From: Tubulanus polymorphus
Taxonomy: Eukaryota > Animalia > Nemertea
NCBI RefSeq assembly: GCF_964204645.1
Contig: NC_134029.1
Span: 12,054,850-12,118,849 of the forward strand
Direction: 5' to 3'
DNA: 64,000 nucleotides
In this document: piece after piece, positions 1,968 to 63,834 of the stretch
Layout: each line of letters starts with the position of its first letter
Position numbering within the stretch: position 1 is the stretch's first letter
Made by a program: the position numbers and the translations under genes
Notes under the pieces: generated by a model
Told to the model about the DNA's origin: nothing
Databases searched by the model: none
What the model saw: the letters and a program-made list of their open reading frames with translations, nothing else

Positions 1968-4900
1968 TTTATATAATCATTTCAATTGAATTGTGGTTTT
2001 TGGTAATCAATATTCGCACACTTTACTGAGATTCAATCTTAGGAGTAGTTTTTATAGTACACTATAATTGAATTCATTCTATGCTAGGACACGTTCTCAT
2101 ACATATCTCAAATAGGTCTAGATTGACTTCGGTTTTTGATGATTGATACTTATACAGCATGAAAAAGACTTAATCGATAGGAGTCGTTTTTACATTTATC
2201 TCAAATACACTGACATTGGTTCTAAAGATAAATATTTATACACAATACTGAAATTAATTAATTCTATGATTGGACACATTCTTATACTAATCTCAAATAG
2301 ATTGTTTTTTAAAGATTATAACTATGACTGGTTATTAAAAATAACGTTTATACACTATAAAAATGGCTTAATGTATAGTAGGAGTCGTTTCTATACTCAT
2401 CTCAAATAAACTGACCGTTGGTTTTTGATAACTGATATTTATACACTATAAAAAGCTTAATCTATGATATGAGTCGTTTCTATACTCATGTCAAATACAC
2501 TGATTTGGTTTTTTATGACAAATAGTTATACACTATAATAAGGCTTAATCTATAGTAGGAGTTGTTTCTATACTCACCTGAAATAAACTGACTTTAGTTT
2601 TTGATGACTAATAGACACAATAAAGAGGCTTAATCTATAGTAGTAGTTGTTTCTATACTCATCTTAAATAAACTGACTGTTGGTTTTTGATAATTAGTAT
2701 TCATACTCTATACAAAAGACTTAATCTATGGAAGGAGTCGTTTCTATACTTATCTCAAATAAAGTGACTGTTGGTTTTTGATAACTAATACTTATATACT
2801 ATAAAAAGGCTTAATCTATAGTAGGAGTTGTTTCTATACTCATCTTAAATAAACTGACTGTTGGTTTTTGATAATTAATATTCAACACTGTAATCAAGCT
2901 TAATCTATAGTAGGAGTTGTTTTTATACTCATCTCAAATAAACTGACTTTAGTTTTTGATGACTAATAGACACAATGAAAAAGCTTACTCTATAGTAGGA
3001 GTCTTTCCATACTAATCTCAAATAAACTGACTTTTGGTTTTTGATGACTAATAGACACAAGAAAGAGGCTTAATCTATAGGAGTAGTTGTTTCTATTCTC
3101 ATCTCAAATAAACTGACTGTTGGTTTTCGATAATTAATATTTATATGCTATAAAAAAGCTTAATCCATAGTTGGAGTCGTTTCTATACTCATCTCAAATA
3201 GACTGATTTTGGTTTTTGATAATTAATACTTATACACCATAAAAAGACTTAATCTATAGTAGGAGTTGTTTCTATACTCATCTTAAATAAACTGACTTGG
3301 TTTTTGATAATTGATATTCAACACTATAATCAAGCTTAATCTATAGAAGGAGTCGTTTCTATACTCATCTCAAATAAACTGACTATAGTTTTTGATGACT
3401 AATAGACACAATGAAAAAGCTTACTCTATAGTAGGATTTGTTTCTATACTAATCTCAAATAAACTGACATTTGGTTTTTTGATGTCAAATAGACACAATA
3501 AAGAGGCTTAATCTATAGGAGTAATTGTTTCTATTCTCATCTCAAATAAACTGACTATTTGTTTTCGATAATTAATATTTATACACTATAAAAAAAGCTT
3601 AATCTATGGAAAGAGTCGTTCCTATACTCATGTCATATACACTGATTTGGTTTTTGATGACAAATAGTAATACACTATAAAAAGGCTTTATCTATAGTAG
3701 GAGTTGTTTCTATACATAGGCCTATCTCAAATAAACTGATTGCTGGTTTTGATAACTAATATTTGTTCACTATAAAAAAGCCTAATCTATAGTAGGAGTC
3801 ATTTCTATACTCATCTCAAAAAGACTGATTTTGTTTTTTGATAATTTATACTTATACGCTATTAAAAGATTTAATCTATAGTAGGAGTTGTTTCTATACT
3901 CATCTCAAATAAACCGACTATGGCTTTTTATAATTAATACTTACACTATAAAAAGGCTTTATCTATAGTAGGAGTTGTTTCTATACATATCTCAAATAAA
4001 CTTACTGCTGGTTTTGATAACTAATATTTATACACTATAAAAAAGCTTAATCTATAGTAGGAGTCATTTCTATACTCATCTCAAATAGACTGATTTTGGT
4101 TTTTGATAATTAATACTTATACACTATTAAAAGACTTAATCTATAGTAGGAGTTGTTTCTATACTCATCTCAAATAAACTGACTATGGCTTTTTATAATT
4201 AATACTTATACACTATAAAAAAGGCTTTATCTATAGTAGGAGTTGTTTCTATACATATCTCAAATAAACTGACTGCTGGTTTTGATAACTAATATTTATA
4301 CACTATAAAAAAGCTTAATCTATAGTAGGAGTCATTTCTATACTCATCTCAAAAAGACTGATTTTGTTTTTTGATAATTTATACTTATACGCTATTAAAA
4401 GATTTAATCTATAGTAGGAGTTGTTTCTATACTCATCTCAAATAAACCGACTATGGCTTTTTATGATTAATACTTACACTATAAAAAGGCTTTATCTATA
4501 GTAGGTGTTGTTTCTATACATATCTCAAATAAACTTACTGCTGGTTTTGATAACTAATATTTATACACTATAAAAAAGCTTAATCTATAGTAGGAGTCAT
4601 TTCTATACTCATCTCAAATAGACTGATTTTGGTTTTTGATAATTAATACTTATACACTATTAAAAGACTTAATCTATAGTAGGAGTTGTTTCTATACTCA
4701 TCTCAAATAAACTGACTATGGCTTTTTATAATTAATACTTATACACTATAAAAAAGGCTTTATCTATAGTAGGAGTTGTTTCTATACATATCTCAAATAA
4801 ACTGACTGCTGGTTTTGATAACTAATATTTATACACTATAAAAAAGCTTAATCTATAGAAGGAGTCGTTTCTATACTCATCTCAAATAGACTGATTTTGT

Positions 4901-6192
4901 TTTTTGATAATTTATACTTATACGCTATTAAAAGATTTAATCTATAGTAGGAGTTGTTTCTATACTCATCTCAAATAAACCGACTATGGCTTTTTATAAT
5001 TAATACTTACACTATAAAAAGGCTTTATCTATAGTAGGAGTTGTTTCTATACATATCTCAAATAAACTGACTGCTTTTAATTGTGTCTATTAGTCATCAA
5101 AAACTATAGTCAGTTTATTTGAGATGAGTATAGAAACGACTCCTTCTATAGATTAAGCTTGATTATAGTGTTGAATATTAATTATCAAAAACCAGCAGTC
5201 AGTTTATTTAAGATGAGTATAGAAACAACTCCTACTATAGATTAAGTCTTTTTATGGTGTATAAGTATTAATTTTCAAAAACCAAAATCAGTCTATTTGA
5301 GATGAGTATAGAAACGACTCCTACTATAGATTAAGCTTTTTTATAGTGTATAAATATTAGTTATCAAAACCAGCAGTCAGTTTATTTGAGATATGTATAG
5401 AAACAACTCCTACTATAGATAAAGCCTTTTTAATGGTGTATAAGTATTAATTATAAAAAGCCATAGTCAGTTTATTTGAGATGAGTATAGAAACAACTCC
5501 TACTATAGATTAAGTCTTTTAATAGTGTATAAGTATTAATTATCAAAAACCAAAATCAGTCTATTTGAGATCAGAATAGAAATGACTCCTACTATAGATT
5601 AAGCTTTTTTATAGTGTATAAATATTAGTTATCAAAACCAGCAGTCAGTTTATTTGAGATATGTATAGAAACAACTTCTACTATAGATTAAGCCTTTTTA
5701 TAGTGTATTACTATTTGTCATCAAAAACCAAATCCGTGTATTTTACATGAGTATAGGAATGACTCTTTCTATAGATTAAGCTTTTTTTATAGTGTATATA
5801 TATTAATTTTTGAAAACCAACAGTCAGTTTATTTGAGATGTAAGCTTTTTCATTGTGTCTATTAGTCATCAAAAACTGAAGTCAGTTTATTTGTGATGAG
5901 TATAGAAACAACTTCTATAGATTAAGCTTATGATAGTGATGAATATTAATTATCAAAAACCAACAGTCAGTTTATTTAAGATGAGTATAGAAACAACTCC
6001 TACTTTAGATTAATTCTTTTTATGGTGTATAACTATTAATTATCAAAAACCTAAATCAGTCAATTTGAGATGAGTATAGAAACAACTCTTACTATAGATT
6101 AAGCTTTTTTAAAGTGTATAAATATTAGTTATCAAAACCAGTAGTCAGTTTATTTGAGATATGTAGATAGATAGATTAAGCCTTTTTATAGT

Positions 6193-6562: not shown

Positions 6563-6640
6563 TTCATTAATACAAAATTTGAAAGTACACATTGTTCATT
6601 AATACAAAATTTTAAAGTACACATTATTCATTAATACAAA
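6563..6640. repeat. Short ~33-bp tandem repeat in the BEL 3' region
   Basis: TTCATTAATACAAAATTTGAAAGTACACATT repeated ~2.4 times, overlapping the pol stop codon. Confidence 0.7.
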
Positions 6641-9600
6641 TTGTCGGATTGCTCCACCGCCGCGATGGCGGTGATCTTCTCCTCTGCTGCAACGGCAGCA
6701 GCTCTTTTCGGTCGCACATTCGCTTCTCCCGCTGTTTTTGTAGCCGAATATTTCGATACGGATGCAAAATCGGTTGACGCATAAACTTCGAGAGGGTACA
6801 GTTTCGGCAACGCTCTATTCGTGTGACCTCTCGCGGTTTTTAACGAAACATTGCGTACTTTTCCGTCCTTTCCACGATGTAATTCCGTAATTACGCCAAG
6901 TCGCCATTTCAATCGTGGCCCATCATCGTGAATTTGAACGACCGAACCTTTTTTCACTAATTCCGTATCAACTCCCTTACATTTCTGATATTCGCACAAA
7001 TTTAACAAGTATTCACCTTTCCAGCGTCTCTTATATTCACTGAGGAGCAAGGAAATATATTTCATCCTACGTGTTAACAATTCGCGAGTGACACAAAAGT
7101 TCGGATCATTCAACTCATAATCTCGCACACTAGGTTGAGGTAACCCGGTTATCCGGTGACCGAACATTAACATGGATGGCGTCAAAGCTTCGAAATCTGA
7201 AACATCTGAAGTTAGATAGGTCAACGGCCTATCATTTAAATGAGATTCAACTTCAATTAAAAAAGTATTTAACTCATCATAGGTAAGTAGAGCTCTACCG
7301 AGTACTTTTTTTGTTATATTTTTCACCAACCCAATCAATCGTTCGTAAAACCCCCCTTGCCAGGGGGCCCTCTTAGCTATGAATTGCCATTTCACCCTGT
7401 TCACGGATAGATAGTCCGTTACTTCAACCGATGAAATAATTTCATCTATAATTTTATTCGCCGATGTAAACGTTGTTGCGTTATCAGAAACACAAGTCCT
7501 CGGCAAACCTCTACGACCTGCAAACCTACGTAACGCTAACAAAAAACAATCGGGAGTTAAATCCCGAACTAGCTCTAAATGCACTGCTCTACTGACCGCA
7601 CATGTAAATAAACAAACGTGGCATTTAGAGGTTTCGCCACCAGATCCCTTAATCACAAGTGGACCTAAATAATCAATACCAGTATGGTGAAAGACTGGAA
7701 CCTCTGAAACTCTGATACCAGGTAGTGAAGGAGGTAACGGTAAGAAAAAGGGTCTACCTTGCACACGTTTGCACTTACAGCATGATTTTAGTAGGTCCTT
7801 TACTCTTTGACGGATACTCGGTATCCAATATTTACATCGAATATCGGCAACAGTAGCATTAACGCCTTGATGCATTATTCTGAAATGTGATCGACGAATC
7901 ACCAAATTGACATACTGGTGATATTTTGGAAGCAGTATTGGTCGTTTAGCCAAATCGTCCAAATCTTCATTCTCTAACCGACCATTCGAATGAATCAAGC
8001 CATCATTACCAATAAACAACTGTAAATCTTTTATCAACCTGTCAACAACCGGAGCTCTAAATGACTTGTCACCCGACAATCGCGCAAACACCAGAGGATA
8101 TTCTGATCTTTGAATACACAATAACCACACTTTCTCAGAATTGTTTAGATCATCAGCCGAAATACTGTCAAAGTTTCTATCAGAAACTTTTACCTTACAA
8201 TTATTTATGAAACGAAGTACTAAGGTAGTCATTCTGAACAACTTAGTTAATGACGAGAAACCATCTGCATCTACTACTTTCGAAATGCCGACAGGTTCAC
8301 TTTTTTCAAGTGAAACATATTGTACACATGTAGATGTATTTATGTGTATAATCGGAATTTGATTTATTCGATCTGCGATGTCAATTGGACCGCACAACCA
8401 CTGCCCGTTAGAAAATAGGCATTGTGCAGATACGCCTCTAGTCAATAAATCAGCTGGATTTCTATCACCATTACAAAATTGCCACTTATCAAAGTCACAA
8501 ATAGATTTTATAGCACGAATTCTATTGGCAACAAATTCTGGTAATTTTTTATCACTTCTCAGCAACTCAACACAATCTGACTATCCGAATGATATTGCGT
8601 TTCGATTACAGGATACGATTGTTTTAATTCATCACAAATATATTGCCCTAATTTAGCGCCTAACATCGCGGCCATGAGTTCTAAGCGTGGAATTATGACC
8701 TGCTTCAACGGGGCTACACGGCCACGACTCAATATGAATTGAATCTTACCCCCTTGATCAAGATAAGCCACAGCGCCATAAGCCGGCTGACCGGCATCGA
8801 CAAAAACATGTAATTTTACCGGTAAATTGGTATCGAATCCATACCATCTTGGTACGTGCATATTTCTGATCGCATAATTCAGATCTGATACTATTCTTTG
8901 CCACAGCAGACCAAATTTCTCTGGTACTGGTGTATCCCAATCATATGATTCTCTCCACAATGTTTGAGTTAATATTTTCCCCCTAATAGAAATTGGTAAT
9001 ATAAGACCTAACGGATCATAAATCTTGGCTAAATTTTGAACAATAGTCCGTTTCGTAGTACCAGAGAATTCGTCTAATATAACCTTTTCTTTGAAGGTGA
9101 ATCTTGCTCAATACTCCAATTCAATCCTAAGACATTCACATGATTTGAATATTCCAATACTTTCTCAGATTCTGCCAATGAACGTACCTCTTCACTGTTT
9201 GAAGACCAGGACCTTAAATTCATTCCTGCTAGAGAAAAGATCTCTCTCGAAGACTTAAAATAATCTTAATCTTAAAATAAGCTATTCTCCTCGGAATTGC
9301 ATGATGTCAATATGTTATCTACGTAAATGTTTCGTAGAATATCGGAACTCGTTCGACAATTTTCAGTGACTACCTGATTCCGTAAATGATGTAAAATTGT
9401 GCAATTCAAAATAAATGGAGAACAGGTAGCACCAAATAATACTCGTTTGAAACGATAAGTTACTAGTTCAGAATCTGGATTTCCTGGCTCTCTAAACCAA
9501 ACGAATCTAGTTACATCCCTATCTTCAGGGTCGATGCCTATTTGGAGAAAGGCTTTTTCGATGTCCGCACAAAGACCAATCTCGTTCAATCTAAATCTCA

Positions 9601-12033
9601 ATAAGATACCTGTGAGATCGTTCTGTAGAGCTGGACCAGGTTCTAAACTATCGTTCAAACTAGGTGATCCAAAACTACAATCAAAAACAATTCGAATTGG
9701 AGTTGTATTCGATTGTCTGTACACAGGATGATGTGCCAAATAATGTACTCGTCTCGATGATGGATGTAGATCAACCACCGGAACAATCTCAATATAATCT
9801 CGTTTCAAATGCTCAACGATAATCTCCGAATAGATTTTAAGAATTTCCGGAGTTTTTGAAAGTTTCTTCAAAGTTGATTTAGTTCTATTTACAACAGCAC
9901 AATAATTAGCTGTTAACGTATCATGTTCAGTTTTCCAAGGTAATTTCACATTGTATCGACCGTCATTGTCTTTCCATATAAAATCACAAATGTACTTATC
10001 AACAAAACTCTCATCCGATAATTTTGCAATCCCAATTTCGTCACAATTCAAAGAAAATTCAGGGTATGACAAAACACTCATTATCGAAATTTTATCATTG
10101 GAAGTACCAGTCGGACCCGACACCAAATAACCAACACATGATTTTATAGCTACAGGACCTTGTTTTGATCTGATTATCTCAGAACTAACAAAATCGTAAT
10201 AATGATCGCTTCCAATCAAAAGTTGAACTTCAAATTTGCACTCGAGTGAATTGGATTAGCCAAATTTAAATCTTTGAATTCAGGAATCTCAAGAAAACCA
10301 CCCATGTCTAATGGACGTGTAATCATCGGAACCACCAAAACAGATACTTCGATTAAATACGAATTCTCACACTCGATGCATATTCTTACGACATCCAAAG
10401 TTCTAACTTTCGAATTCTGTGATTCAAATGCACCTAAATCTAGTATTTCAGTCCTACTGGATTTCAAACCTAACTGACTCGCCATTTTGGCCGTCATAAA
10501 TGATCGCTGCGAGCCATCATCGAACAATGTATTACAGGACACAATAGAACCACTATACGGGTTCTCGATATTAACAACTGCAGTCTTCAACAGAACATTT
10601 CCGAAAGATTTACACAAACTAATATTCTGAGATGCCGTTTGTGTCTCAATGTGATCATCACTTTGTATTAAAGACTCTGTTTCAAAAATCGGAACCGATG
10701 AAGACTGCGTTGTCACAGAATTTGTCATATTGCTTTTGATTCTATTTTGCTCATTGCCTATACCACGGTTTTGACCTTCCTCAACGGAAAAATTGACACC
10801 TCTAGAATTCGGAACAGAATAAGGTCATGTTTTCCGCGTTTGAAAACAAATACTGGTGTGATGTCGCTTTTTACACATACGACACGAATATTTAGACTTG
10901 CAGTTTCCGGCATGATGCTTATCTCCTAAACAATTAAAACACAAAGATTTGTTTCTCAGAATTTCCATCCTCTTTTTAACATCATTAACTACAGTGCGCT
11001 CGTTGGATGCATGCAAACCTTCGCAAAAAACACACTTCTTTTTAGAATTCTGAGCTCCGGTCGATAAGAATAATTGACTTACGGTGCTTGTAGGTTCAGT
11101 AATAGTACAATTACTCACATCTTTGACATCAAGAGATACAGTGGACTCAATAATTTCTAATTCGAATCTAAAACAATCAAGAAGAGATGTTATTGACCAT
11201 TCACAATTTTTGTTTGTGCGACACATATTTCGATAGATTTCATACGGAAGCTTTCTTATAATTATTGGTACCAACATTGCGCTGTAATTATCATGAGACG
11301 TCCCAAGTGCATTCAACTGACGCATGTGACAATTACATTCGTCGTAAAATTTACGCAGGGATGATCGTTCGTTGTTCGGTGGACTTAAATCAACAAGCGC
11401 GGAAACGTAAGCCTGTGATATCTTGTGATTCTGTCCAAATCTTGTTTTCAACAAACTAACAGCCGCTGAATAATTGTCATTCGTCAATGGCAAACCGTCA
11501 ATGCACGATCTTGCATCGCCGATTAACAAACACTTCAAATAGCTAAATTTTTCGATTTCCGAAAACTGTGAGTTGAGATGAACTGACGTTTCGAATAAAC
11601 CCCAGAACGTTGGCCACTCTTTCAAATTTCCGTTATATTTAGGAAGTTGTAACTTTGGTAGTAAAGCTGTTTTAATTTCAGTTGATCTCACTGGTGACTG
11701 TTTCTCTAGCGAAGACATTTTCCCGATTTCACGGTTAAATTTGAAAATACTGCCATTCAAATTGTTCAAATAATCTTCAGCTTCCAAAATAAATTGTTCT
11801 ATTTCATTATCAGACTGGATCTCGTCTAATAAATGGGCATCAATCATCTCTTACTGGCTGAATTTGCGTTTGAGATTGTTCAAATTAATACTAGCCTTTA
11901 GTAAGTCGTGTTCTCTGATAGCTGTATCACATGCTGAGGTAAGAGCGTTCGCGACTCTTCTGTTTGCTGAACGTCCTGCTCTCGAAAGTTTTACACCAAC
12001 TCCTGATTTTTCGGTAGCTGAATTCTCCGCCAT
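6631..12033 (-). pseudogene. BEL/Pao gag-pol polyprotein broken into at least 6 ORF pieces
   Basis: Gag LPKLQLPKYNG...W..FW and zinc knuckles (10825-11847); protease LFDDGSQRSF (10216-10728); RT ADIEKAFLQI...FGATCSPF...YVDN (9272-10219); RNase H LHVFVDAG..AYGAV...IPRLELMAA (8559-8960); integrase HHCC...GIDYLGP...SDNAT...GGFYERLI (6631-8565). Confidence 0.95.
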
Positions 12034-12381: not shown

Positions 12382-15300
12382 ATAGTGTATAAGTATTAAT
12401 TATAAAAAGCCATAGTCAGTTTATTTGAGATGAGTATAGAAACAACTACTATAGATTAAGTCTTTTAATAGTGTATAAGTATTTATTATCAAAAACCAAA
12501 ATCAGTCTATTTGAGATGAGTATAGAAACAACTCCTCCTATAGATTAAGTCTTTTTATAGTGAATAAGTATTAATTATCAAAAACCAGCAGTCAGTTTAT
12601 TTGAGATGAGTATAGAAACAACTCCTTCTATAGATTAAGCTTGATTATAGTGTTGAATATTAATTATCAAAAACCAAAATCAGTCTATTTGAGATGAGTA
12701 TAGAAACAACTCCTACTATCGATTAAGTCTTTTTATGGTGTATAAGTATTAATTATCAAAAACCAAAATCAGTCTATTTGAGATGAGTATAGAAACGACT
12801 CCTACTATAGATTAAGCTTTTTTATAGTGTATAAATATTAGTTATCAAAACCAGCAGTCAGTTTATTTGAGATATGTATAGAAACAACTCCCACTATAGA
12901 TAAAGCCTTTTATAGTGTATAAGTATTAATTATAGAAAGCCATAGTCAGTTTATTTGAGATTAGTATAGAAACGACTCCTACTATAGAGTAAGCTTTTTC
13001 ATTGTGTCTATTAGTCATCAAAAACTATAGTCAGTTTATTTGAGATGAGTATAGAAACGACTCCTTCTATAGATTAAGCTTGATTATAGTGTTGAATATT
13101 AATTATCAAAAACCAACAGTCAGTTTATTTTATTTAAGATGAGTATAGAAACAACTCCTACTATAGATTAAGTCTTTTTATGGTGTATAAGTATTAATTA
13201 TCAGTCTATTTGAGATGAGTATAGAAACGACTCCTACTTTAGATTAAGCTTTTTTATAGTGTATAAATATTAGTTATCATAACCAGCAGTCAGTTTATTT
13301 GAGATATGTATAGAAACAACTCCTACTATAGAGTAAGCTTTTTCATAGTGTATTATAAATATTAGTTATCAAAACCAGCAGTCAGTTTATTTGAGATATG
13401 TATAGAAACAACTCCTACTATAGATAAAGCCTTTTAATAGTGTATAAGTATTAATTATAAAAAGCCATAGTCAGTTTATTTGAGATGAGTATAGAAACAA
13501 CTCCTACTATAGATTAAGTCTTTTAATAGTGACTGTTGGTTTTTGATAATTAACATTCAACACTATAATCAAGCTTAATCTATAGAAGGAGTTGTTTCTG
13601 TACTCATCTAAAAAAAACTGACTTTAGTTTTTGATGACTAATAGACACAATGAAAAAGCTTACTCTATAGTAGGAATTGTTTCTATACTAATCTCAAATT
13701 AACTGACCTATGGTTTTTTGATGTCTAATAGACACAATAAAGAGGTTTAATCTATAGAATTAGTTGTTTCTATTCTCATCTCAAATAAACTGACTGTTGG
13801 TTTTCGATAATTATTATTTATATACTATAAAAAAAACTTAAAATCTATAGAAAGAGTCCTTCCTATACCCATGTCATATACACTGATTTGGTTTTTGATG
13901 ACAAATAGTTATACACTATAAAAAGGCTTAATCTATAGTAGGAGTTGTTTCTATACTCATCTCAAATAAACTGACTTTAGTTTTTGATGACTAATAGACA
14001 CAATGAAAAAGCTTACTCTATAGTAGGAGTCGTTTCTATACCAATCTCAAATAAACTGACTTTTGGTTTTTGATGACTAATAGACACAATAAAGAGGCTT
14101 AATCTATAGGAGTAGTTGTTACTATTCTCATCTCAAATAAACTGACTGTTGGTTTTCGATAATCAATATTTATACACTATAAAAAAAGCTTAATCTATAG
14201 AAAGAGTCGTTCCTATACTCATGTAAAATACACTGATTTGGTTTTTGATGACGAATAGTTATACACTATAAAAAGGCTTAATCTATAGTAGGAGTTGTTT
14301 CTTTACATATCTCAAATAAACTGACTATGGCTTTTTATAATTAATACTTATACACTATAAAAAGGCTTAATCTATAGTAGGAGTTGTTTCTTTACATATC
14401 TCAAATAAACTGACTATGGCTTTTTATAATTAATACTTATACACTATAAAAAGGCTTAATCTATAGTAGGAGTTGTTTCTATACATATCTCAAATAAACT
14501 GACTGCTGGTTTTGATAACTAATATTTATACACTATAAAAAAGCTTAATCTATAGTAGGAGTCGTTTCTATACTCATCTCAAATAGACTGATTTTGGTTT
14601 TCGATAATGAATACTTATACACTATAAAAAGACTTAATCTATATATAGTAGGTGTTGTTTCTATACTCATCTCAAATAAACTGAGTATGGCTTAATCTTA
14701 AGCCTAAAAAGGCTTAATCTATAGTAGGAGTTGTTTCTTTACATATCTCAAATAAACTGACTATGGCTTTTTATAATTAATACTTACACTATAAAAAGGC
14801 TTTATCTATAGTAGGAGTTGTTTATATGCATATCTCAAATAGACTGACTGTCGGTTTTTGATAACTAATATTTATACACTACAAAAAAGCTTAATCTATT
14901 GTAGGAGTTCTTTCTAATCTCATCTCAAATAAACTGACTTTGGTTTTTTATAATTAATACTTATACACTATAAAAAGACTTAATCTATAGTAGGAGTTGT
15001 TTGTATACTTATCTCAAATAAACTGACTGTTGGTATTTTGATAATCAATACTTATACACTATAAAAAGACATAATCTATAATAGGATTCGTTTCTATACT
15101 CATCTTACATAGACTGATTTTCGTTTTTGATGACTAATAGACACAATAAAGAGGCTTAATCTATAGGAGTAGTTGTTTCTATTCTCATCTCAAACAAACT
15201 GACTGTTGGTTATCGATAATTAATATTTATACACTATAAAAAAGCTTAATCTATAGAAAGAATCGTTCCGAAACTCATGTCAAATACACTGATTTGGTTC

Positions 15301-16825
15301 TTGATGACAAATAGTTATACACTATAAAAAGGCTTAATCTATAGTAGTTGTTGTTTCTATATATCTCAAATAAACTGACTGCTGGTTTTGATAACTAATA
15401 TTTATTCACTATAAAAAAGCTTAATCTATAGTAGGAGTCATTTCTATACTCATCTCAAATAGACTGATTTTGGTTTTTGATAATTGATACTTATACACTA
15501 TTAAAAGACTTAATCTATAGTAGGAGTTGTTTCTATACTCATCTAAAATAAACTGACTTTAGTTTTTGATGACTAATAGACACAATGAAAAAGCTTACTC
15601 TATAGTAGGAGTCGTTTCTATACTAATCTCAAATAAACTGACTTTTGGTATTTTGATGTCTATTAGACACAATAAAGAGGCTTAATCTATAGGAGTAGTT
15701 GTTACTATTCTCATCTCAAATAAACTGACTGTTGGTTTTCGATAATCAATATTTATACACTATAAAAAAAGCTTAATCTATAGAAAGAGTCGTATACTCA
15801 TGTAAAATACACTGATTTGGTTTTTGATGACAAATAGATATACACTATAAAAAGGCTTAATCTATAGTAGGAGTTGTTTCTATACATATCTCAAATAAAC
15901 TGACTGCTGGTTTTGATAACTAATATTTATACACTATAAAAAAGCTTAATCTATAGTAGGAGTCGTTTCTATACTCATCTCAAATAGACTGATTTTGGTT
16001 TTCGATAATGAATACTTATACACTATAAAAAGACTTAATCTATATATAGTAGGAGTTGTTTCTATACTCATCTCAAATAAACTGAGTATGGCTTTTTATA
16101 ATTAATACTTACACTATAAAAAGGCTTTATCTATAGTAGGAGTTGTTTATATACAAATCTCAAATAGACTGACTGTTGGTTTTTGATAACTAATATTTAT
16201 ACACTACAAAAAAGCTTAATCTATAGTAGGAGTTCTTTCTAATCTCATCTCAAATAAACTGACTTTGGTTTTTTATAATTAATACTTATATACTATAAAA
16301 AGACTTAATCTATAGTAGGAGTTGTTTGTATACTTATCTCAAATAAACTGACTGTTGGTATTTTGATAATCAATACTTATACACTATAAAAAGACATAAT
16401 CTATAGTAGGAGTTGTTTCTATACTCATCTCAAATAAACTGACTTTGGTTTTTGATAATTAATACTTATTCACTATAAAAAGATTTAATCTATAGTAGGA
16501 GTTGTTTCTATACTCATCTCAAGTAAACTGACTTTGGTGTTTGATAATTAATACATATACAATATTAAAAGACTTAATCTAGGCCTATATAAGGAGTTGT
16601 TTCTATACTTAGGCTATCTCAAATAAACTGACTTTGTTTTTTGATAACTAATATTTATACACAATTACAAGAGCCCCAAGGGGCACTATGGCAAACGTGT
16701 CAACTTTTCATAAAATGGCAAATGATGATGCATTTTGTGGGTTAAATTTGTCCAAATACACTCCCAGCTCATAGACTAGTCAATCCCAGGCTAATAATTT
16801 ACACTATTCAATTGTGTTTTCATAA

Positions 16826-18165: not shown

Positions 18166-18360
18166 AACTAGGGGTCCAGGGACACCATGTCCACTTAGAA
18201 AGTGGTTTCAATTGCTCAACTATCTAACAATTTCAATATTCAACACCCCCTGGTGACCATATTCAAAAACCAATGACCTCAAAACTCACCAATCATAGAA
18301 CATGTCAGCAGCTACGATTTTGTAATTGATTGTGATAACAAAATAAGCCTCATTACCAAT
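18166..18360 (-). mobile_element. HINE family A 3' end fragment
   Basis: Reverse complement of 47100-47289 (AACTAGGGGTCCAGGGACACCATG...). Confidence 0.8.
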
Positions 18361-19574
18361 CTACTATGGAAATACTAGGAGTCATTTCTATACTAGTAAC
18401 TCAGGACTAACTAGGACTCAGTAACGACTTACCTATTTCATGGCTGACAACTTTCACGTCGAAATTGTGTTTTGGGAGAGGTGACAAGACCTTTCCCCTT
18501 CCGATCTTTTTGATCTCCTCATTGTTTATTCTGAAAATGTAAAAAAAAACTGATTTAGCATAGGCGCCTTAATGATAACGATGGAAATTACAAAATTGCA
18601 TAGAGCTTCATGATGTTCAATCATCATATAGGCCTACATGTAGGCCTACCAATATAGGCCGAAGTGCACAACATTGTTCATACAGAAGGAAATCAAATGA
18701 GACTTCTCATAGTTACTTATCAAACTGCCAGAGCCATGAGAGCAGATACTGTGCTTAATTGAAACCATAATCTTAGAACATGTCACAAGCTTACAATTTA
18801 ACAATTGATTGTGGAAATTGTGATCGAAATTCAACAGATGTCATTTTCAAGACTGATGACACTTAAGATGTTGGCCAATTGCACGATAATTGACTGATTG
18901 CAAAAGCGCTCAAATATGATCTCTTCTCAAAGAATATCCATTACGGTAAAGATTCTAATAAAAAATGCAAAACCACTAGGAAGCTGCTGTCTCAGCATTC
19001 AGAGCAAAATTTACATTTTTGGGCAAATGACCACCACCACACATCCACTCGACTCAATTTGCCTTATGCTGATGGGCCTTGGGGGGATACAATTATCGCT
19101 GAAAGATTAAGACAATGAATTGATTTCAACATTTGCCTTGAAAACATCAAAAATGTTTAAAAAGTGCTGATTTCAGTGAACAAAATGGCCACCAGTTGGC
19201 CATCTTGTTTCTGACCGTGCCAATTTTTTCGGCTGAAGATGTACCTACGGTGGGCCTAGATGCATGTTTAATTTCAATTCCTAAACGATCAATTGAAAAC
19301 TTCTTCCAATTCTTAAATAGCTTGAGTCCAACTACTGACCCGCATAGGCCTAAGCACAAACGAAAACTTTAAGTGAACGCAATAACCTCAAGTCCAAGTA
19401 GTCTAAAAACTACTGAAAAGTGCGGATTTCGGCAAACAACAATGGCTGCCAGTTGCCCATCTTGAATATGATCGGGCCAGTTTTTAGGCTGCAGATGGTG
19501 TCGGTTCAACTCTGGATTAGGTCAATATAGTTCTGTCATGGTGGGTTTTCTTTTATGAAGTGAGTGGTTCGGTT

Positions 19575-33514: not shown

Positions 33515-33659
33515 ATCGGTCAGCATTTACTTGGGCAATTCAAACGGTCTGATCGTGGAAAGTATTCTATTGCTTTGGATTTGAAGAAACCAGATGGAGT
33601 GAACATTCTGAATTCCTTAACTACGCAGGCAGATGTATTGATTGAACCATATAGACCAG
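33515..33659 (+). CDS. AMACR: Alpha-methylacyl-CoA racemase (CoA-transferase family III), internal coding exon
   Basis: Polypyrimidine-CAG acceptor and GTTAAG donor; encodes IGQHLLGQFKRSDRGKYSIALDLKKPDGVNILNSLTTQADVLIEPYRP(G). Confidence 0.9.
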
Positions 33660-33941
33660 GTTAAGTATGGCTTTGGCCTGAAGTGATAGCAGTGGTCTGG
33701 GGTATGGCTCTTGTCCCAAAAACCTTTAATATGTACATGTACCTAATGGCCGATGAGGCATATCAGGATTTTTTGGTCCACGACATCAGGCATCACTGCG
33801 CTGCGCTAACTCAAAACTGATTTAGTTACATTTTTTGACCATTTAAGGCAATATTCTATTGCAATGGGCTATTGTTCATCCATCTTCCCCTCCATACACG
33901 GCATGTGGTTTTTAGCTCTCGAGGAACGAATTAGCGTGTCG

Positions 33942-37681: not shown

Positions 37682-39374
37682 TTACGTTATTAGATAAGCT
37701 TTCATTTCGAAGCGCCGAATCTGGTTATGCCGAATCTGACGACCAGGTTGATGAGGTGCACGTTGGTAGTCAGCAATAAGTTCATGGCATAACTTCAAAC
37801 GAAACTGTCTACTGGTCAATGCATCAGCAGCATTGGACACCTTGTGCATTATGTATGCATTTGTTACTGCTGTGATAAGCAAGTGGCAAAAAACCTTTTT
37901 CCACCATTTCACTGAACGATGTAGTATGCTGAAATAGGAGTTGTATTGATCATTCAAATCAACTCCACCCATATACGTGTTGTAGTCCTCAATTGCATTT
38001 GGTTTTTCGATTTGTCTGTAACCATCCTCTCCTTCACGTGAACGAATACGCTTCACAGTAACACCTGCATTGCTAACAGTAGACAATACACAAACTGGGC
38101 GTTTGTCATACCAACCAATTGCTAACATGTCTGACGCGTTATGCCATAACATCAAAGGCGACATGTCCTGCAATTGTCGTTTGTTGGTGCGGGCCGTGAA
38201 TTGCTTCAGTTTTAGTGGATTTCCTGCACGATTCGCCCTAACTGTGCCACAGGCACCAATGTTTCGATCTTTTAGGTCCACAAATAATTTCACACTAGTG
38301 AAGAAATTGTCACATGTTATGACCTGGCCAGCCCGAACATTCTGCGATGCGTCCATAACAACTCGATACCCAAGGTCAACTTGACCACCGTCCGCTCCTT
38401 TGTACAGCGTCCAATTGTGGGCGTAACCAGTTTTCGACCCAGCCAGTATCCATGCTTTCATGCCCCACTTGACGGGCTTACTCTTGATGTATTGCAACAT
38501 AAAAGTTCGACCCTTGAAGGCTATCATGCCTTCATCCACGGACAGAAACTTTTCCATATGGAAGGCGTCATTCCATGCGCGAAATAGCTGTTCAATCAAA
38601 GACTTGACCTTGAATGTCCTGTCATAACCAGGCTGCCCTCTTTGAATTTGTGTTTTGTTATTCACAGGGTGCAAGAATCGTAATAGCATCAAAAACCGAT
38701 TGCGGCTCATTACGGCTCGGAATCCTGGTTTATCAGTCAGAGGATCAGTAGACCAATGTGCACGAAAAGATCCCCGATCTTCATATCCCGTCAGTAACAA
38801 CAATGCCAGGAATGCTTTCATTTCGTCACTAGTGACATTATACCAGGTTTCTAGAACACTATCAGTAGTATTTCCACTGTTTTGATATTGTTGAAAATAA
38901 CGATTTGTTTCAGTCACTGGCATGTCTATGATAGTGTCCGGAAAAGCTTTTGTGAAAAAGTCAATTGGCGTGTAGTCCGTTGTATCGAACTTGGGCTCAC
39001 CTGGATTCGGACAGTTGTACTGCGGCAACCAGTTAGGAGGGGGGTGGTTTCTATCTTCAGCCCAATCAGGATCCTGATCAATGTTGGCACCTTGTGCACG
39101 TCCACCAGGTCCACCACGACCACACACTGGGGCATGACCTCTCCTCAGCAGACTGATTATCATCACTATCAGGAGTACTATCGTCACTTACAGGACTATT
39201 TTTACCATTATTGTCACTTACTTCCGCATCTAAATCACTTCCGGGTTCACTTTCGGTTTCATTTCCGGGTTCAAAATCGCTTTCTGAACCACTTTCAGCG
39301 TTTGAGTCACTGTCATTAGAGTCACTGTCAGCAAATATCTCTCTTATTTCATGATCACTAAACCTGCGTGACAT
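37682..39374 (-). pseudogene. piggyBac (PGBD4-like) transposase with one N-terminal frameshift and no C-terminal cysteine-rich domain
   Basis: Acidic N-terminus (39078-39374 frame) followed by a 501-aa frame with SVDEGMI, TCDNFFTS, MGGVDLNDQ and KWWKKVF motifs. Confidence 0.9.
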
Positions 39375-39668: not shown

Positions 39669-39672
39669 TTAA

Positions 39673-40094
39673 GGACATTAGTTATTCTATATTGTCACCA
39701 GGCGGTGTTGAATAGTAGAATAACTTAGTATTTCCTCATTAAATTGGTACCTAGGCGTATTTTGTTACCATGCCCAATTGCAAAGTTGTAGTTTATGACA
39801 TGTTCTATGATTGTGGTGAGTTTCAAGGTCATTGGGTTTTGCATATGGTCACCAGGGGGGCATTGAATAGTAGAATTACTTAGTATTTATATCTCAAATT
39901 GGTAATGAGGCATATTTTGTTATCACACTAAATTACAAAATCGTAGCTGCTGACATGTTCTTTGATTGTAGTGAGTTTCAAGGTCATTGGTTTTTGTATA
40001 TAGTCACCAGGGGGCATTGAATATTGAAATTGCTAGATTGTTGAGCATTGGAAACCACTTCACAAGTGGGCATGGTGTCCCTGGACCACTAGTT
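39673..40094 (+). mobile_element. HINE family A 3' portion
   Basis: ~155-bp units with GGTCACCAGGGGGC and the terminal CAAGTGGGCATGGTGTCCCTGGACC(A)CTAGTT. Confidence 0.85.
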
Positions 40095-44790: not shown

Positions 44791-45012
44791 ATAGATCATA
44801 TAACGACATAACATAACAACCTCACGAAAAATGAATACTATATTATAGTATATAATGCCCTTGTGGCAAAAACTAGTGACGCATTTCACTACTCCAAATC
44901 ACGTACTCAAGGTTTTCCCATGGATTTTTTTGGTGAATATTGTGTACATATACACTGAGTAACCATAGTTCCTTATGTATAGGGGGGCCTTAATAGTTTG
45001 CTTATTTTGTAG

Positions 45013-45156
45013 GGGTTATGGAGAAACTAGGCTTAGGGCCTAAAATCTTAATGGATGCTAATCCTCGTTTGATTTACGCAAGACTAACTGGATACGGAAC
45101 AGATGGACCTTTCGCTCACAAAGCAGGACACGATATAAATTATTTGGCAGTTTCTG
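45013..45156 (+). CDS. AMACR: Alpha-methylacyl-CoA racemase, next coding exon (144 bp)
   Basis: TTTGTAG acceptor and GTAAGT donor; phase-1 join with the previous exon; encodes [48 protein letters not shown](G), including the GHDINY catalytic His motif. Confidence 0.93.
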
Positions 45157-46138: not shown

Positions 46139-47289
46139 ATTTTAGCCCACTTGGGACTTTAGTCCCAGCGGGCTATTGCGTTCACTTTTCGTCCGTCGTC
46201 CGTCCGTCCGTCCGTTGTAGCGTTCATCCGTCCGTAGACGGAATCCAGTTATTTTGGGAAGTTTTGAAGACGCTTCAAGGTAATGTCTTGATATTTGGGT
46301 TACACATTTATCTACCCTAGATACATCTTCAGCCCAAAAACTGGCCCTGTCAGAATCAAGATGGCCGACTGGCAGCCATTGTTGATCGCTAAAATCAGCA
46401 CTTTTTACACATTTTTGAACTTATTGAGGGAAATTTTGTAGACGCTTTAATCAATTACCTTGATCTTTCGTATATACTTGAATCCCCCCAGGGCCTATCA
46501 GCATAACAAAAATTGGGTCGATCGGACTCAAGATGGCCGTCCTATGACCTTTTTAGTGCCCAAAAATGTCAATTTTGGCCCGAATTCTGAGTCCTGTAGC
46601 TTCATACTGGTCTGCCATTTCTCATTGTAATTGCTGATGGGTATTCTTTGGAAAGGGATGTTTTATACCTGGGATAGGTATTTTTGATCGGCCAATTATG
46701 ACGCAATTGGCGGCCATCTTGGTGTCATCAGTACTCATTCGTAGGTGGGAAAAAGTTTTTCGACATTATATTGATATCTAAGCATATTTTGTTACAACAA
46801 TTAATAAGAAAGATGTAGCTTATAACATGTTCTATGATTGTGGTGAGTTTCGAGGTCATTGGTTTTTGTATATTGCCACCAGGGGGCGTTGAATAATACA
46901 ATATCTTAGCATCTTATCAATATCTTATTTCTATATTATATTTGTACCAATGCATATTTTGTTAGCACAATCAATTGCAAAGTTGTGGCTCATGACATCG
47001 TCTATGATTGTGGTGAGTTTCAAGGACATTGGGTTTTGAATATGGTCACCAGGGGGCGTTGAATAGTAGAATAACTTAGTATTTCCATGTTAAATTGGTA
47101 ACGAGGCATATTTTGTTATCACAATAAATTACAAAATCGTAGCTGCTGACATGTTCTATGATTGTGGTTAGTTTCAAAGTCATTGGTTTTGTATATGGTC
47201 ACCAGGGGGCGTTGAATATTGAGATTGTTAGATTGTTTAGCATTTGAAGCCACTTCCCAAGTGGGCATGGTGTCCCTGGACCCCTAGTT
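46139..47289 (+). mobile_element. Complete HINE/DINE-1-like (Helentron non-autonomous) element, family A
   Basis: 5' hairpin TAGCCCACTTGGGACT-TT-AGTCCCAGCGGGCTA; (CGTC)n microsatellite; internal ~155-bp tandem units; 3' subTIR CCCAAGTGGGC (inverted copy of GCCCACTTGGG) plus short hairpin and CTAGTT; T-rich flanks. Confidence 0.85.
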
Positions 47290-54510: not shown

Positions 54511-54890
54511 ATTAGATGTTTTGTAACCTGCCAAATGAAATTTCGTTTGTAACACTTTTATTGTATGTAATTCTGTATGCTGCTGTCTCAATATATTCCA
54601 TCCTACGACTACATACTATGTGCTTGTAACAGAAAATACATATAAATCAATTCGAATTTCACATGAAGGATTGAAATTTTGGTGCGTTTTTATCTGATAT
54701 TACCCTTGGTTATTTGCCAATCTTCCATTTCATCTATAAAAGCCAGTAGTTATCATTGCACTATGTAGCTGAATAAACAATTGCCCTGAAAACGAATTGG
54801 AGACGTGCATAAATGTTCCTTAAATTGTTCCTAATTTCTTTGTCCAGCGCGACGTAAGAATACTCAGAATTTATTTCTACGGGAGACGTA

Positions 54891-56743
54891 CCGTATTTTC
54901 CGGTGTACAAGTCGACCCGGTGTATAAGTCAAGGTCAAATTTTGAGTTGAGTGGCTTCTTCATAAGTATACATATGTCACATTGAAAACAGTGCCGATGT
55001 CATTCTCATAGTAGTTGAGAGTATTTACCACTTATTGCATTATTAAATCATTGGGATCTGTTGTTTCTAATATTAAATTACCGGATTAGTGCTTATTGTT
55101 TGTATCCAAGTGTTGAATGTATAGTGTATATGTTGAATGCCGCGCGCCTGTAGTCTATTATTAGACTGACTGTGTATTGATTATTGGCACGCTGCCACAG
55201 CATCGCCGCTTATATAAACACTGTACAATGAATATACGCAGTTTTCTTTCTCTTTTTATTTTTAGCCCACTTGGGACTTTAGTCCCAGCGGGCTATTGCG
55301 TTCACTTTTCGTCCGTCATCCATCCGTCCGTCCGTAGACGGAATCCAGTTATTTTGGGAAGTTTTGAAGACGCTTCAAGGTAATGTCTTGATATTTGGTT
55401 TATACATGTATCTACCCTAGACACATCTTCAGCCCAAAAACTGGCCCTATCAGAATCAAGATGGCCGACTGGCAGCCATTGTTGTTCGCCAAAATCAGCA
55501 CTATTGACTGTGATCAAGACGATTTGATCAATTACCTTGATCTTTCGAATATATTTGAATCTACCAAGGGCCCATCAGCATAAGAAAAATTGGGTCCATC
55601 TGACTCAAGATGGCCGTCCTATGACCTTTTAAGTGCCCAAAAATGTCAATTTTGGCCAGAATTCTAGGTCCTGTAGCTTCCTACTGGTTTGCCATTTCTC
55701 ATTGCAATTTGTGATGGGTATTCTTTGTAAAGGGATGTTTTATACCTGAGATAGGTATTTTTGATCCGCCAATTATGACGCAATTGGCGGCCATCTTGGT
55801 GTCATTAGTACTCATTCGTAGGTGGGAAAAAGTTTTTCGACATTATATTGTTACCTAAGCATATTTTGTTACAACAATGAATTAGAAAGTTGTAGCGTAT
55901 AACGTGTTCTATGATTGGGGTGAGTTTCAAGTTAATTGTTTTTTGTATATGGCCACCAGGGGGCGTTGAATAATACAATATCTTAGTATTTCTATATTAT
56001 ATTTGTACCAATACATATTTTGTTACCGCAATCAATTGAAAAGTTGTAGCTCATGACATCATCTATGATTGTGGTGAGTTTTAAGGAAATTAGTTATGCT
56101 ATATGGTCACCAGGGGGCGTTGAATAGTAGAATAACCTTGTATTTCCTTATTATATTGGTACCTAGGCACATTTTTTGTTACCATGATCAATTACAAAGT
56201 TGTAGTTCATCACATGTTCTATGAATATGGTGAGTTACAAGGTTATTGGGTTTTGAATATGGTCACCAGGGGGCGTTGAATAGTAGATTAACTTAGTATT
56301 TCCATATTAAATTAGTAACGAGGCATTTTTTGTTATCACAATCAATTACAAAATCGTAGCTGCTGACATGTTTTATGATTGTATTGAGTTTCAAGGTCAT
56401 TGGTTTTTGTATATGGTCACCAGAGGGCGTTGAATATTGAAATTGTTAGATTGTTGAGCATTTGAAACCACTTCCCAAGTGGGCATGGTGTCCCTGGACC
56501 CCTAGTTAACATTAGTTAATTTTAAACATTTCCAAACTGTGAGAAACTATTTTTATCAACATCCTAAATTCTGATTGGTATATGAGTGTAGCCTAACATG
56601 AATTAATATTCCATTTCATCATGGCGACCTTGAACTCTAAACATCGTCAGTTTAAAACGATATCGAAAGTGTATAAGTCAACCTACGTTTTTTGGACATG
56701 ATTTTTGGTCTCAAAAACTCGACTTATACACCGGAAAATACGG
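54891..56743. mobile_element. pogo-like MITE, copy 2, interrupted by HINE-A
   Basis: Same TIRs and body as 26299-26953, reversed. Confidence 0.88.
55258..56507 (+). mobile_element. Complete HINE family A copy with four CTCF-like tandem units
   Basis: Same termini as 46139-47289; inserted in a T-run of the pogo MITE without a TSD. Confidence 0.88.
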
Positions 56744-59700
56744 TTTGAATAAAATATGATATGTATTTCTACGTCCGGCGCACGTAAGGATAGCTGGGAA
56801 TAAATTTTGGTTATTTTACGGGAGACGTAAGAATAGTATACTTGACTTATTTCTACGTCTGATACGACGGACCGATAGCCAAGGAATTTATTTTTACGTC
56901 CACTAATGCGCATGCGCATGCCCATCGCACCGGACGTGAAATCAGACGTAAATATAGCCGCAAGTTAATTCTTACGGGCGGCGTAAAAATAGCCTGACAA
57001 CTGTGGTGTTAGCTGGTGTTTTCTGTTGATTTCTTCTTTCTGTCGAAACTTTCTTCCTTTGATACAAAATAATTTCCAAATGAGGCTTAGTTTCTTTTTG
57101 GAACTATTAAAACATTCAATGCAGTTATAAAAGCTCTAACCGTATTGAATTGCATCGGTATCCATTGCTTATTTATCTATAGTTATTTATTTGTTGGAAG
57201 TATATTTCGTTTCGGAGGAACACATGCCGTTTTACGTATATTCATGCTTCACACACGTGCTCATTACAGACTCGCTGCTATATGATGTATTAATGATCTG
57301 TGCATGAAAAGCACGCCTCGCGCGTGGCCTAGTTAAAGTTTTCCTGGAAACTGCAAATGATTCAACTGCCAGGGTTCGTCGAGGCTGGCTGTGAAAAGCA
57401 GGGGAATTTATAGAAGGGCAGTAAAATTGGGAACTTGGAAATTGTTCAATTTTACGTTAATAAAGTCTAACAAACTTCATACACCGTGTACAGAAATCGT
57501 CACACCATGAACGTGGAGAGTGTCTATTTGAGCCGTGGAAAAGCCCACTACCATGCATATTTTTCAGATGAATCATCATGCGGCTGCTGTGTGATGGAGA
57601 TCGTATCAATAGGCAGATTTTCAAAAACTTCTGGACTCAATCTAGGGGTCGTCTTATCAACGGGGTCCCTATGCATCTTAACAACCAATCAGAGCTACGC
57701 GCACATGCTACGGAGTCCCGTCGATAGACTGTTTAGTAACACATTTTCCTTGCCAACTTGTATTCTAGATGTATATTCTATGAAAATAGATACATATCAA
57801 TTTGAAAATATTTTGCATTCCAAAATTTATTTTTGGTGCACCAGTGCTTAGTTTGGTGAATAAAACTCTGTATGAATATTCGGATGAATTTTATGCAATA
57901 CTTATTTTTTATCATATAGAAAACACCGAACAGGTGAACTAGTATTGTTTAGGATATAAGAATCATCAGTTCGATGCTGCTGCGGCTGCGGCTGCCCCGA
58001 TACGCGCAATGGGACCTGTCTGGCTTTACCGCAGATTAATCTGGCGCAGTACCGCAGCTTGCGATTTTTTTTTTCAGATGAGAGTTTCCGCCATTTTATT
58101 TGCAGTGCGCATGCTTGACATTCAATTTGTAAACACAATCCATACGCGTGCGCTACACTCGCTGTATCAGCGTTCGCAGCAACTCATAACTTTTGGAGGA
58201 CATGAACGCACGTGATCGGCCGTGCTTGAAATGGAAAATTAAAGTATCTTGTACGATGATGAGGAGAAAATGAAAGATGAAATCTAAATAATTCAATTCT
58301 TTCAAAGATTGGCATTTGGAAAATGCGTGGTTTTGAAATCTATGTAAGAAAACACTACACCCCGGTTTGATTAGCAGGTTTTCCATCTGAACAGTAGACC
58401 ACACACACGTGTCAGTGTATTAACAGTAGCAGTAGTATATACACTCCTATTACGTGCATATACAGTATATTTCATGGTACGCAGGCACAGGCCTCGTACA
58501 CTACTAACAGTGACACAGTTCTCGACAGAGTTCAGCGATTCCTCGGCATTTGTTTACAAATACTGCAGAGTATGCGCACTGCAAACAAAATGGTGGAGAC
58601 TCTCTTGTGAAAAAAAATCACCCGCAGCTAGCTCTGTCCTTGGATTTGCTAAAGCTTAGAGCAAAACAAATCAGTCTGACGTATTTGTTCCTGCCTACCA
58701 CTGTCCGGGGCGTTAAGTCTCACCATAGTGCCCAGGGCAGTTGTTAAACCAAACAGTTCTGCATGATTTAAAGACAAGTAGAATGAACGATGTAATATGT
58801 TTTCATCGATATTATAAAAGAAACTACCTCGAGAGCACAGGACCTTTGGTCCTCTAGTATGATATCTTCACAAGAGAGTAGATTTTTGCCTGGATTTTGT
58901 CTTGAGATCGTCACAATTTTTGAATTAGACACCATATTGGATGGGTCAATGTAAAGTGAAGATTCGTTTAGAATATTTGGTGAAACTGTTTCATGAACCA
59001 CTCGATTTGAGGAAGAAAAATAAAACTTTCTTGTTAATTTCAACAAACATATCAGACAATTTGGCTAACATTGATAACCCCAGTGACTGTTGACAAAAAT
59101 TGGATTAGTTTTTTGCACTGATTACCCTCACATCGTTTCAGCAGTATTTTAGACAAATCTTCACTTTAGATTTCCCAATCCATTATGGCATCCTATTGAA
59201 AGATCGTCACAATTCTTAGATATAAACCGGGCCAAAAATCTACTTTCTAGTGAAGATATCATAAAATAAATCACTGCATTGGATTCCGTGAGAAGCTAGC
59301 ATCTGCACTTTGAACCGTGTGCCCTTCTAATGATTATTGATTATCAAATTCAAATTTCAACTAAATTTATTTCGCCTGGGAGACGATCTGCTCTCAGCCG
59401 CGTATGGGCCTATGTAACCATAAAATGAGTAAAATATTTCCATTTTTTCAGATTCATTGTTCCCAATCTGTGCTTCGAATTCCTGCTTATGTGAGTTTTT
59501 TTCAGTATTTCTGTCATTTCAATATGGAACCGGGGCAAATTATTGTGACAGTTGTCTTAGACTTGCATGGGGTTGGGGGATGAATGAAAATGGCTTGGCT
59601 CTTGACTTTGACGGTAATTAGATCATGGGGTTTTCCATGGTCGGCCTAATAGATATCCTAACTGACAAGCCCTGACAGTGCATTGAATACTTTTTATTTT

Positions 59701-62599: not shown

Positions 62600-63834
62600 T
62601 ATTTTTGATATTGAATACTATGTAATTGTGAATTTGTTATATTGCGCATCAGAAATAATATATACATGCATTTTATAATTATCGATTCCTTTTTCATGAA
62701 TAATTGTATTCCATCTTTTGTATTATCTAATTTTTTACCAGAGTCATGTAATGAATTATCTTCAGTTGTTCTTAAATATAACCGTAGTGCAAATTTATTA
62801 CCAGTATAATAATCAATATATTTGATATTACAATTCTCAGATAATTAATTTTTTTCATTCGTGAAAGGTTTTTTTATTTCTACCCATTGATCTATCATTC
62901 TCATTCCTTGACAAAATATTTTATTTGCTATTCTTTCAATAGTTATTTCTACTTTTAATATCTCAGGATTATTATATTTATCAACATCTATTGTACCATT
63001 TGAATATATTTTAGTAAAAGATATTAATATACCTTTAATTGATCTCCTTGGAAAGTTTATATTTTCATTAATCATTTCATCAGCTGAATTAATACTAACA
63101 GTTTTGAATTTATCAATATAATCATATAATAATGAAAATCCTTGATTAGTTTGAATTGTCCTCTCAAAATTTTCTTTAGTTACTGTATCATATTCTATAC
63201 ATATATTCGATAATTTATAATCCATATCTTTAATTACACTCGATAATACAATTTCATTTACAGGTGCAAAAGTTATTTCGAATATTAAATCTTCTTGAAT
63301 TGCATATTTATATAATGAAGAATTATCATTTATTAATTCAAAATCTAATGGAATTTTATATTTACTTCCATAAATGTTTTTTATTAAATTATCTGCAGCA
63401 TAAGTTACTATTGTATTATTGGCTTTTGTTCTTAATTTATCTTGATTTAAGGTTGGAATACCTTGGAAAATCATATTATTTCTATTCTCTTTAGTTAACC
63501 ATAAATCTTTATAATGCACAAATAAATTATAATCATCTAATGTATAAACAGTTTCTGTTCCAATTTGTATAGTTAATTTTTGTATTGAATATCTACCAAC
63601 ATTATCTACAACATAATTATTATCATGACCAGTTATTTCTTTATCAGCTGATAGATAGATACTATTTGGGACATAAAAAGTGTTTTGATTTAATCTCAGA
63701 ATACTAACATATACAGTTTCATTCCGATTAATACTAGAAGGATTATGAATAATTATGTGATGACAACGTTCTGCTTTAATCGCATTAGATATTCTCCTAT
63801 TTTTTGAAGGATCTATATACTTCCCATTCACCAT
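62600..63834 (-). pseudogene. Maverick/Polinton (adintovirus-like) putative major capsid protein
   Basis: 329-aa ORF (HNPSSI, DNVGRY, YKDLW, IPLDFE, NICIEYD, PRRSIKGIL, NPEILKVEITIE). Homology continues past a premature TAA at 62845 (NKFALRLYLRTTEDNSLHDSGKKLDNTKDGIQL...ISDAQ). The region is intronless, very AT-rich and adjacent to the c-integrase. Confidence 0.72.

Follow-up and report, generated by a model that had tools for sequence, protein, structure and literature searches.

The window analysed here, a 64,000-nucleotide stretch of the Tubulanus polymorphus genome, contains two CoA_transf_3 exons, at 33515-33661 and 45012-45155, with the next exon 7.7 kb past the window end. The best PDB hits of these exons are methylacyl-CoA racemases, and the second (+ strand) lies upstream of the intron that hosts the element described below. 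The AMACR-intron location given in the initial annotation is therefore borne out by the flanking exons. Within the intron, a MITE with 26-nt terminal inverted repeats (54890-56744, recognized by its repeats and by a paralogue that lacks the insertion at another place in the window) is interrupted by a non-coding HINE, or non-autonomous Helentron, of 1,246 bp (55262-56507, + strand). The ends of this HINE are common to 28 of 30 fetched relatives. Elsewhere in the window, 89-bp satellite arrays of changing orientation (2347-6160 and 12382-16662) flank broken ORFs at 6631-11850 that by eye look like an LTR retroelement. A 501-aa ORF at 37682-39187 (-) has, also by eye, the look of a piggyBac-type transposase, and a 329-aa ORF at 62845-63834 (-) begins much like ORFs found in the Maverick-like sequence beside Helentrons.

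The accessible text of PMC4067079 and PMC7492417 defines HINEs by 11-15-bp subterminal inverted repeats that start 2-4 nt in from the 5' end and stop tens of nt short of the 3' end, together with a 5' inverted repeat, a short microsatellite, central tandem repeats and a 3' palindrome or stem-loop. In the element at 55262-56507, the subterminal inverted repeats are 12 nt long and 100% complementary (55265-55276 and 56473-56484). The 5' copy is folded back on an internal inverted repeat, and the resulting hairpin (55263-55295) is stable (DNA fold -9.9 kcal/mol, z -4.2). The 3' copy lies 23 nt from the 3' end, less than the 38-60 nt given for mite HINEs. A (CCGT)n microsatellite at 55310-55335 differs in length between copies, and a central tandem array at 55831-56436 was delimited by TRF (period 154, 3.9 copies, 79% matches). 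The terminal segment (56487-56507) consists of a weak hairpin and a CTAG-TT end; it is conserved by 13-mer count, and its imperfect 5-bp stem is no more stable than that of shuffled sequences (z -0.09). No ORF of note is present in the element. Insertion was into T-runs: among 57 full copies, each of the positions -3 to -1 is a T in 53-55. Where the empty site survives as a paralogue, as it does in the window for this very copy, it differs from the filled one by the element and 1-3 T's only, and no clear target duplication accompanies insertion. The element is a HINE, as the initial annotation had named it, and its hallmarks agree with the definitions in those parts of the two sources.

Every unit of the central array carries a CTCF-type word on the + strand. 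The 19-mers start at 55950, 56104, 56260 and 56414, with 2, 3, 3 and 4 mismatches, respectively, to the consensus quoted in the initial annotation, and spacings of 154, 156 and 154 bp. Both the 17/19 match claimed for the first and the co-orientation of the remaining three were thereby confirmed. The 12-bp cores were located as exact matches at 55954-55965, 56108-56119, 56264-56275 and 56418-56429, the last having A at an A/G position. The three YY1-type words that had been reported were also found by sequence match: CAAGATGGCCG occurs at 55457-55467 (+) and 55606-55616 (+), and reversed at 55788-55798 (-). A single 172-bp duplication within the element (68-70% identity) accounts for the two forward words, having copied the region of the first. 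Exact matches to CACCAGRGGGCR number nine in the window against 0.01 expected. Since the nine all go back to a single repeat unit, the question of chance concerns a single origin, for which the probability is ~2e-4 per 154-bp unit or ~1e-3 per element; for the YY1 9-mer it is 6e-3. The spacing had been described as nucleosome-scale. The 154-156-bp period is real, but it is ordinary among HINEs: most monomers of oyster HINEs measure 140-180 bp in the accessible part of PMC7492417, and a sister family without the motif has units of 144-146 bp. With sites 154 bp apart, less than 147 bp remains between footprints, so that full occupancy would imply an open stretch and not a phased nucleosome array.

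The coordinates given earlier for other copies in the window were accurate to within 4 bp (1594/1748, 39846/40001, 46873/47043/47196 and, reversed, 18241). They belong to a second full copy with three units (46143-47289, +), a 5'-truncated copy with two degenerate cores (39669-40094, +), a 5'-truncated copy whose one core has its CpG decayed to TG (18166-18380, -), and a related element (981-1967, +) that combines the same body and two CTCF units with other 5' and 3' modules. The latter arrangement is seen in four local copies, and its alternative 5' junction was found in 942 reads of run X8. At 981-1967, L055, L234 and L010 the CTCF-bearing body has a different 5' part and a different 3' end, the latter in common with a Rep/helicase element on C6 (L089-L090). 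An old relative of the HINE 5' body, with 66% identity and YY1-type words, lies at 18852-19271 (-). A 550-bp derivative without any of the four units (L357-L371) has 53 dispersed copies as a passenger of another repeat. It was rejected as evidence that elements can do without the array, because all 15 copies examined share flanks and represent one insertion in that repeat.

The searched genome comprises 268 Mb in 77 contigs. Exact 13-mers of the HINE 3' end occur 2,699 times (control 9), and near-full copies are on average 92% alike. At least one core is present in 89 of the 99 distinct copies obtained from the first 100 3' ends on contig C1. Rep/helicase elements gave 58 matches, one with an endonuclease, and among the 10 loci examined no autonomous partner with both ends of the family was found. 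In a candidate on C6, 262 bp of the HINE 5' end precede the Rep ORF by 3.3 kb; it was rejected, the DNA that follows this piece being part of another repeat and the junction being repeated at none of 11 other loci. The motif-less sister family includes an autonomous-type Helentron on C3 (G000:C3:12177311-12190882, L087:4311 to L088:7882) with five 146-bp units containing a palindromic ATGCAAAT and, ~80 bp before its own end, a decayed copy of the HINE-family 3' end. Copies of Helentrons of 10-15 kb (L095-L100, L091/L092 and L105/L106) are 99.4-99.7% identical, indicating recent activity, and several adjoin Maverick-like sequence.

A host with no CTCF had been listed as a refuting case; it does not apply, since a CTCF gene was found at G000:C3:3429780-3432857. 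Human CTCF (7w1m_H) gives the best alignment for its zinc fingers 1-9, fingers 3-7 are close to the human ones, and its named relatives are CTCF in molluscs, Lingula and arthropods. N-terminal to the fingers is an IYDF stretch, which we take to correspond to the cohesin-binding YxF motif. A YY1 gene lies at C1:5884636. The word CACYAGRKGGCRC, whose degeneracy we assume to be that of the canonical CTCF motif, occurs 1,723 times genome-wide against 20 reversed controls, and 33 distinct sites outside the family have no common flank. The number of matches and the unrelated flanks together indicate that the host has words of this class in its own right. Exact 12-mers of the HINE core number 4,686 (control 4), and in 3,832 of them (82%) the next three bases are those of the HINE family. 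The element has thus spread CTCF motifs through the genome as had been suggested, and its exact cores amount to more than twice the canonical word class.

The distribution of these sites along C1 (32 Mb) was compared with that of native words. The CA-variant HINE sites fall within 8-20.4 Mb in 63 of 67 cases, as do 15 of 16 matches to the motif-less sister, and 34 of the first 100 native canonical words listed lie in the outer ~3.5 Mb. HINE copies therefore crowd the repeat-rich chromosome middles as the sister family does, many of them inside other repeats, and native words reach their highest density toward the tips. Clusters of native words were observed at 0-0.9 and 29.5-31.6 Mb of G000:C1, and small local clusters at L393, L394 and L397.

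Inserted copies lose the core neutrally. In a tree of 67 of the 127 copies, terminal-branch changes at non-CpG G/C sites were 36 at 32 sites in the core, compared with 137/97, 80/57 and 243/169 elsewhere, rates that agree within error; at CpG sites they were 31/8 in the core and 63/24 in the body. Core CpGs mutate at or above the rate of other CpGs in the copies. In an unbiased sample of 94 of the 99 copies, chosen by their 3' end alone, 0.104 of G/C sites in the unit-4 core differ from consensus versus 0.101 in the remainder, and 50 of the 94 unit-4 cores still match the degenerate motif. The excess of motif conservation that the initial annotation had proposed to look for is accordingly absent from this sample. 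Genome-wide, CpG decay has affected 919 of 4,751 family-context cores (581 to CA and 338 to TG, with 3,832 intact). On terminal branches the two kinds of event are about equally frequent (12 vs 11). The core CpG decays as if methylated. The YY1 words show no excess conservation either (ratio 0.200 vs 0.288, p=0.65). These data demonstrate that the core is under no constraint and its CpG under no protection after insertion, at a resolution that a small exapted minority of copies would escape. Two contrary signals were set aside. Strong core conservation in HMM-collected units was rejected as ascertainment, since those alignments had to span the motif, and faster core decay in a core-masked alignment was partly an indel artefact and was replaced by the 3'-end-selected sample.

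The reading that we favour, by a modest degree, is that the CTCF-type sites are selfish cargo multiplied by HINE transposition and not insulators maintained by the host. An ancestral unit would have gained one CTCF site, captured or arisen by chance, and duplication of the unit would have turned that site into four. A Helentron Rep/helicase acting in trans could then have copied the element a few thousand times. Young unmethylated copies are likely bindable and may be bound by CTCF in some cells, and most copies would then drift, losing their sites.

A clearly less probable reading places selection on the element itself. Copies with intact CTCF (and YY1) sites would stay open or unsilenced in the germ line and would source new copies more often, and the transposing lineage would keep the motif while inserted copies decay. 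The 12-bp core is invariant in the four unit consensuses (12/12 positions vs 96/129, p=0.035) although the units are ~79% alike, but the same holds for a second box, of 20 bp. Internal-branch changes in the core fall at CTCF-tolerated positions, presumably those at which the CTCF motif is degenerate, in 6 of 11 cases. The internal/terminal ratio is 0.153 for the core and 0.288 for the body (p=0.065); against the fair control, 0.241, the difference has p=0.22. Among copies of less than 90% identity the core is kept slightly better (0.178 vs 0.251, p=0.04). Genome-wide, tolerated G>A changes exceed breaking ones (123 vs 67 per site), the tolerated CA form of the core CpG outnumbers TG, and one subfamily has two core changes, both at tolerated positions; tolerated C>T changes are, however, rarer than breaking ones (130 vs 175 per site), and the variant counts are of copies and not of independent events. 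The family also has ~20 times more end matches than its motif-less sister (2,699 vs 139).

Metagenome contigs bear on the same question. They were scanned for two cores 142-172 bp apart, and were thus selected by motif and without a control pattern, which yielded at least 118 loci in 67 clusters. Five clusters, picked by eye, consist of low-GC tandem units of 141-160 bp with one core per unit. The CTCF words of these motif-selected contigs occur in four mutually unalignable unit classes of 143-160 bp. Locus L319 is homologous to the HINE unit outside the motif (z 10.8), contains YY1-type words and keeps the core with one tolerated change. L257, which carries a full HINE 5' end, is a homologue of the sister unit (z 16) but has the core that the sister unit lacks. 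L346, L241 and L318 form the third class and L311 the fourth. The recurrence is treated as a lead, because the contigs were found by motif with no control pattern and the unselected units of the metagenome arrays show no greater conservation of it (0.245 vs 0.265, p=0.40). An apparently significant test for compatible variants in these arrays was rejected, since high-GC arrays gave significance too and those variants had been permitted by the search pattern. As separate observations, a 143-146-bp unit in L346, L251, L282, L324 and L330 combines octamer, CTCF, GC-box and E-box words within ~40 bp, and minisatellites of 30-55 bp in L298, L344, L354, L323, L245 and L353 have a CTCF-type word in most units, on contigs of 40-53% GC.

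The invariant core, the fewer internal changes, the slightly better retention in copies of less than 90% identity, the excess of tolerated variants and the core of L319 point toward retention in the source lineages, for which the evidence is weak and mixed; the motif has possibly been retained there. A wider form of the argument holds that the central repeats of bilaterian HINEs repeatedly gain sites for constitutive chromatin factors since bound copies stay open and transpose more. We put it forward tentatively, on the CTCF words here and in three other unit classes and the octamer, E-box and GC-box words in others. If it were true, rolling-circle elements would be the main generator of perfect invertebrate CTCF sites, selfishly and not for the host.

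It is improbable that the word is a look-alike, due to chance or related to the Rep/helicase, in copies that CTCF does not bind. A chance of ~1e-3 per element is not small where a genome holds many repeat families, the core CpG decays as though methylated, and the core is followed by T, in contrast to the C of the canonical pattern. However, the HINE core is the same as that of native sites outside the family, four of which also have T next, and the CTCF fingers 3-7 of the host are close to the human ones. A general Rep site would, moreover, be expected in the sister family, and neither its autonomous Helentron nor the HINEs belonging to that Helentron have the word.

Least probable is that the host keeps many copies as boundaries, the ready-made insulator or looping cassettes envisaged in the initial annotation: the sites are co-oriented and near-consensus, the host CTCF has the IYDF stretch, and exapted transposon-derived CTCF sites are known in mammals (PMC7786948, in its accessible part), but the motif shows neither excess conservation nor CpG protection after insertion, and the copies, many of which lie inside other repeats, are few on the distal arms, the part of the chromosome with the highest density of native sites.

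The family is of interest for several reasons. Little is known of the origins of CTCF landscapes outside vertebrates and flies, and this HINE puts its cores in repeat-rich chromosome middles, away from native clusters. Two questions could be put cleanly with it: does an invertebrate tolerate, silence or use CTCF arrays produced in such numbers, and does CTCF recruitment help a transposon? It also calls for caution, as one repeat dominates motif-based CTCF maps in such genomes.

Among known systems, the closest in structure are the HINE, DINE-1, Pearl and Cg_HINE elements. According to the accessible text of PMC4067079 and PMC7492417, they resemble the present family in target (T-rich), in module swapping, in central repeats of 140-180 bp, in a GTCY-type microsatellite and in the 5' inverted repeat and subterminal pair; their 3' palindrome may correspond to its weak terminal stem. 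The subterminal inverted repeat of the present family is not among 11 from oyster. Unlike known HINEs, it has a CTCF word in every unit; the term "ctcf" has 0 occurrences in the same text of these two sources. No report of CTCF sites or arrays in HINEs was found in the literature covered, which leaves aside most subscription papers and Repbase/Dfam. A supplement on the oyster satellitome (PMC8268682), which may hold no monomer sequences, gave 0 matches to six short terms.

Rolling-circle supply of sites for one host factor has precedents in the Helitron-borne heat-shock elements of Caenorhabditis, with HSF-1 sites (PMC6927752), and the DINE-1-like MSL sites of Drosophila miranda (PMC4067079). 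Those sites are described there as bound and co-opted, whereas the factor here is architectural and co-option is unsupported. Helitron minisatellites have also been proposed as a source of insulation in the PATC insulators of C. elegans (bioRxiv 10.64898/2026.08.08.743475, accessible part), which differ in relying on a mechanical 10-bp periodicity, with no CTCF motif and in a CTCF-less animal. A parallel for CTCF itself is the rodent B2 SINE, beside other transposon-borne CTCF sites: a transposon wave that supplies a large share of CTCF motifs, mostly lineage-specific (PMC7786948, accessible part). By comparison, the present family is a rolling-circle DNA element, belongs to a bilaterian outside the vertebrates, bears four co-oriented sites in each copy, and is described here at the level of sequence. 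Read at that level, it is a real CTCF-motif-spreading transposon, and gives rodent B2 a new rolling-circle counterpart among invertebrates.
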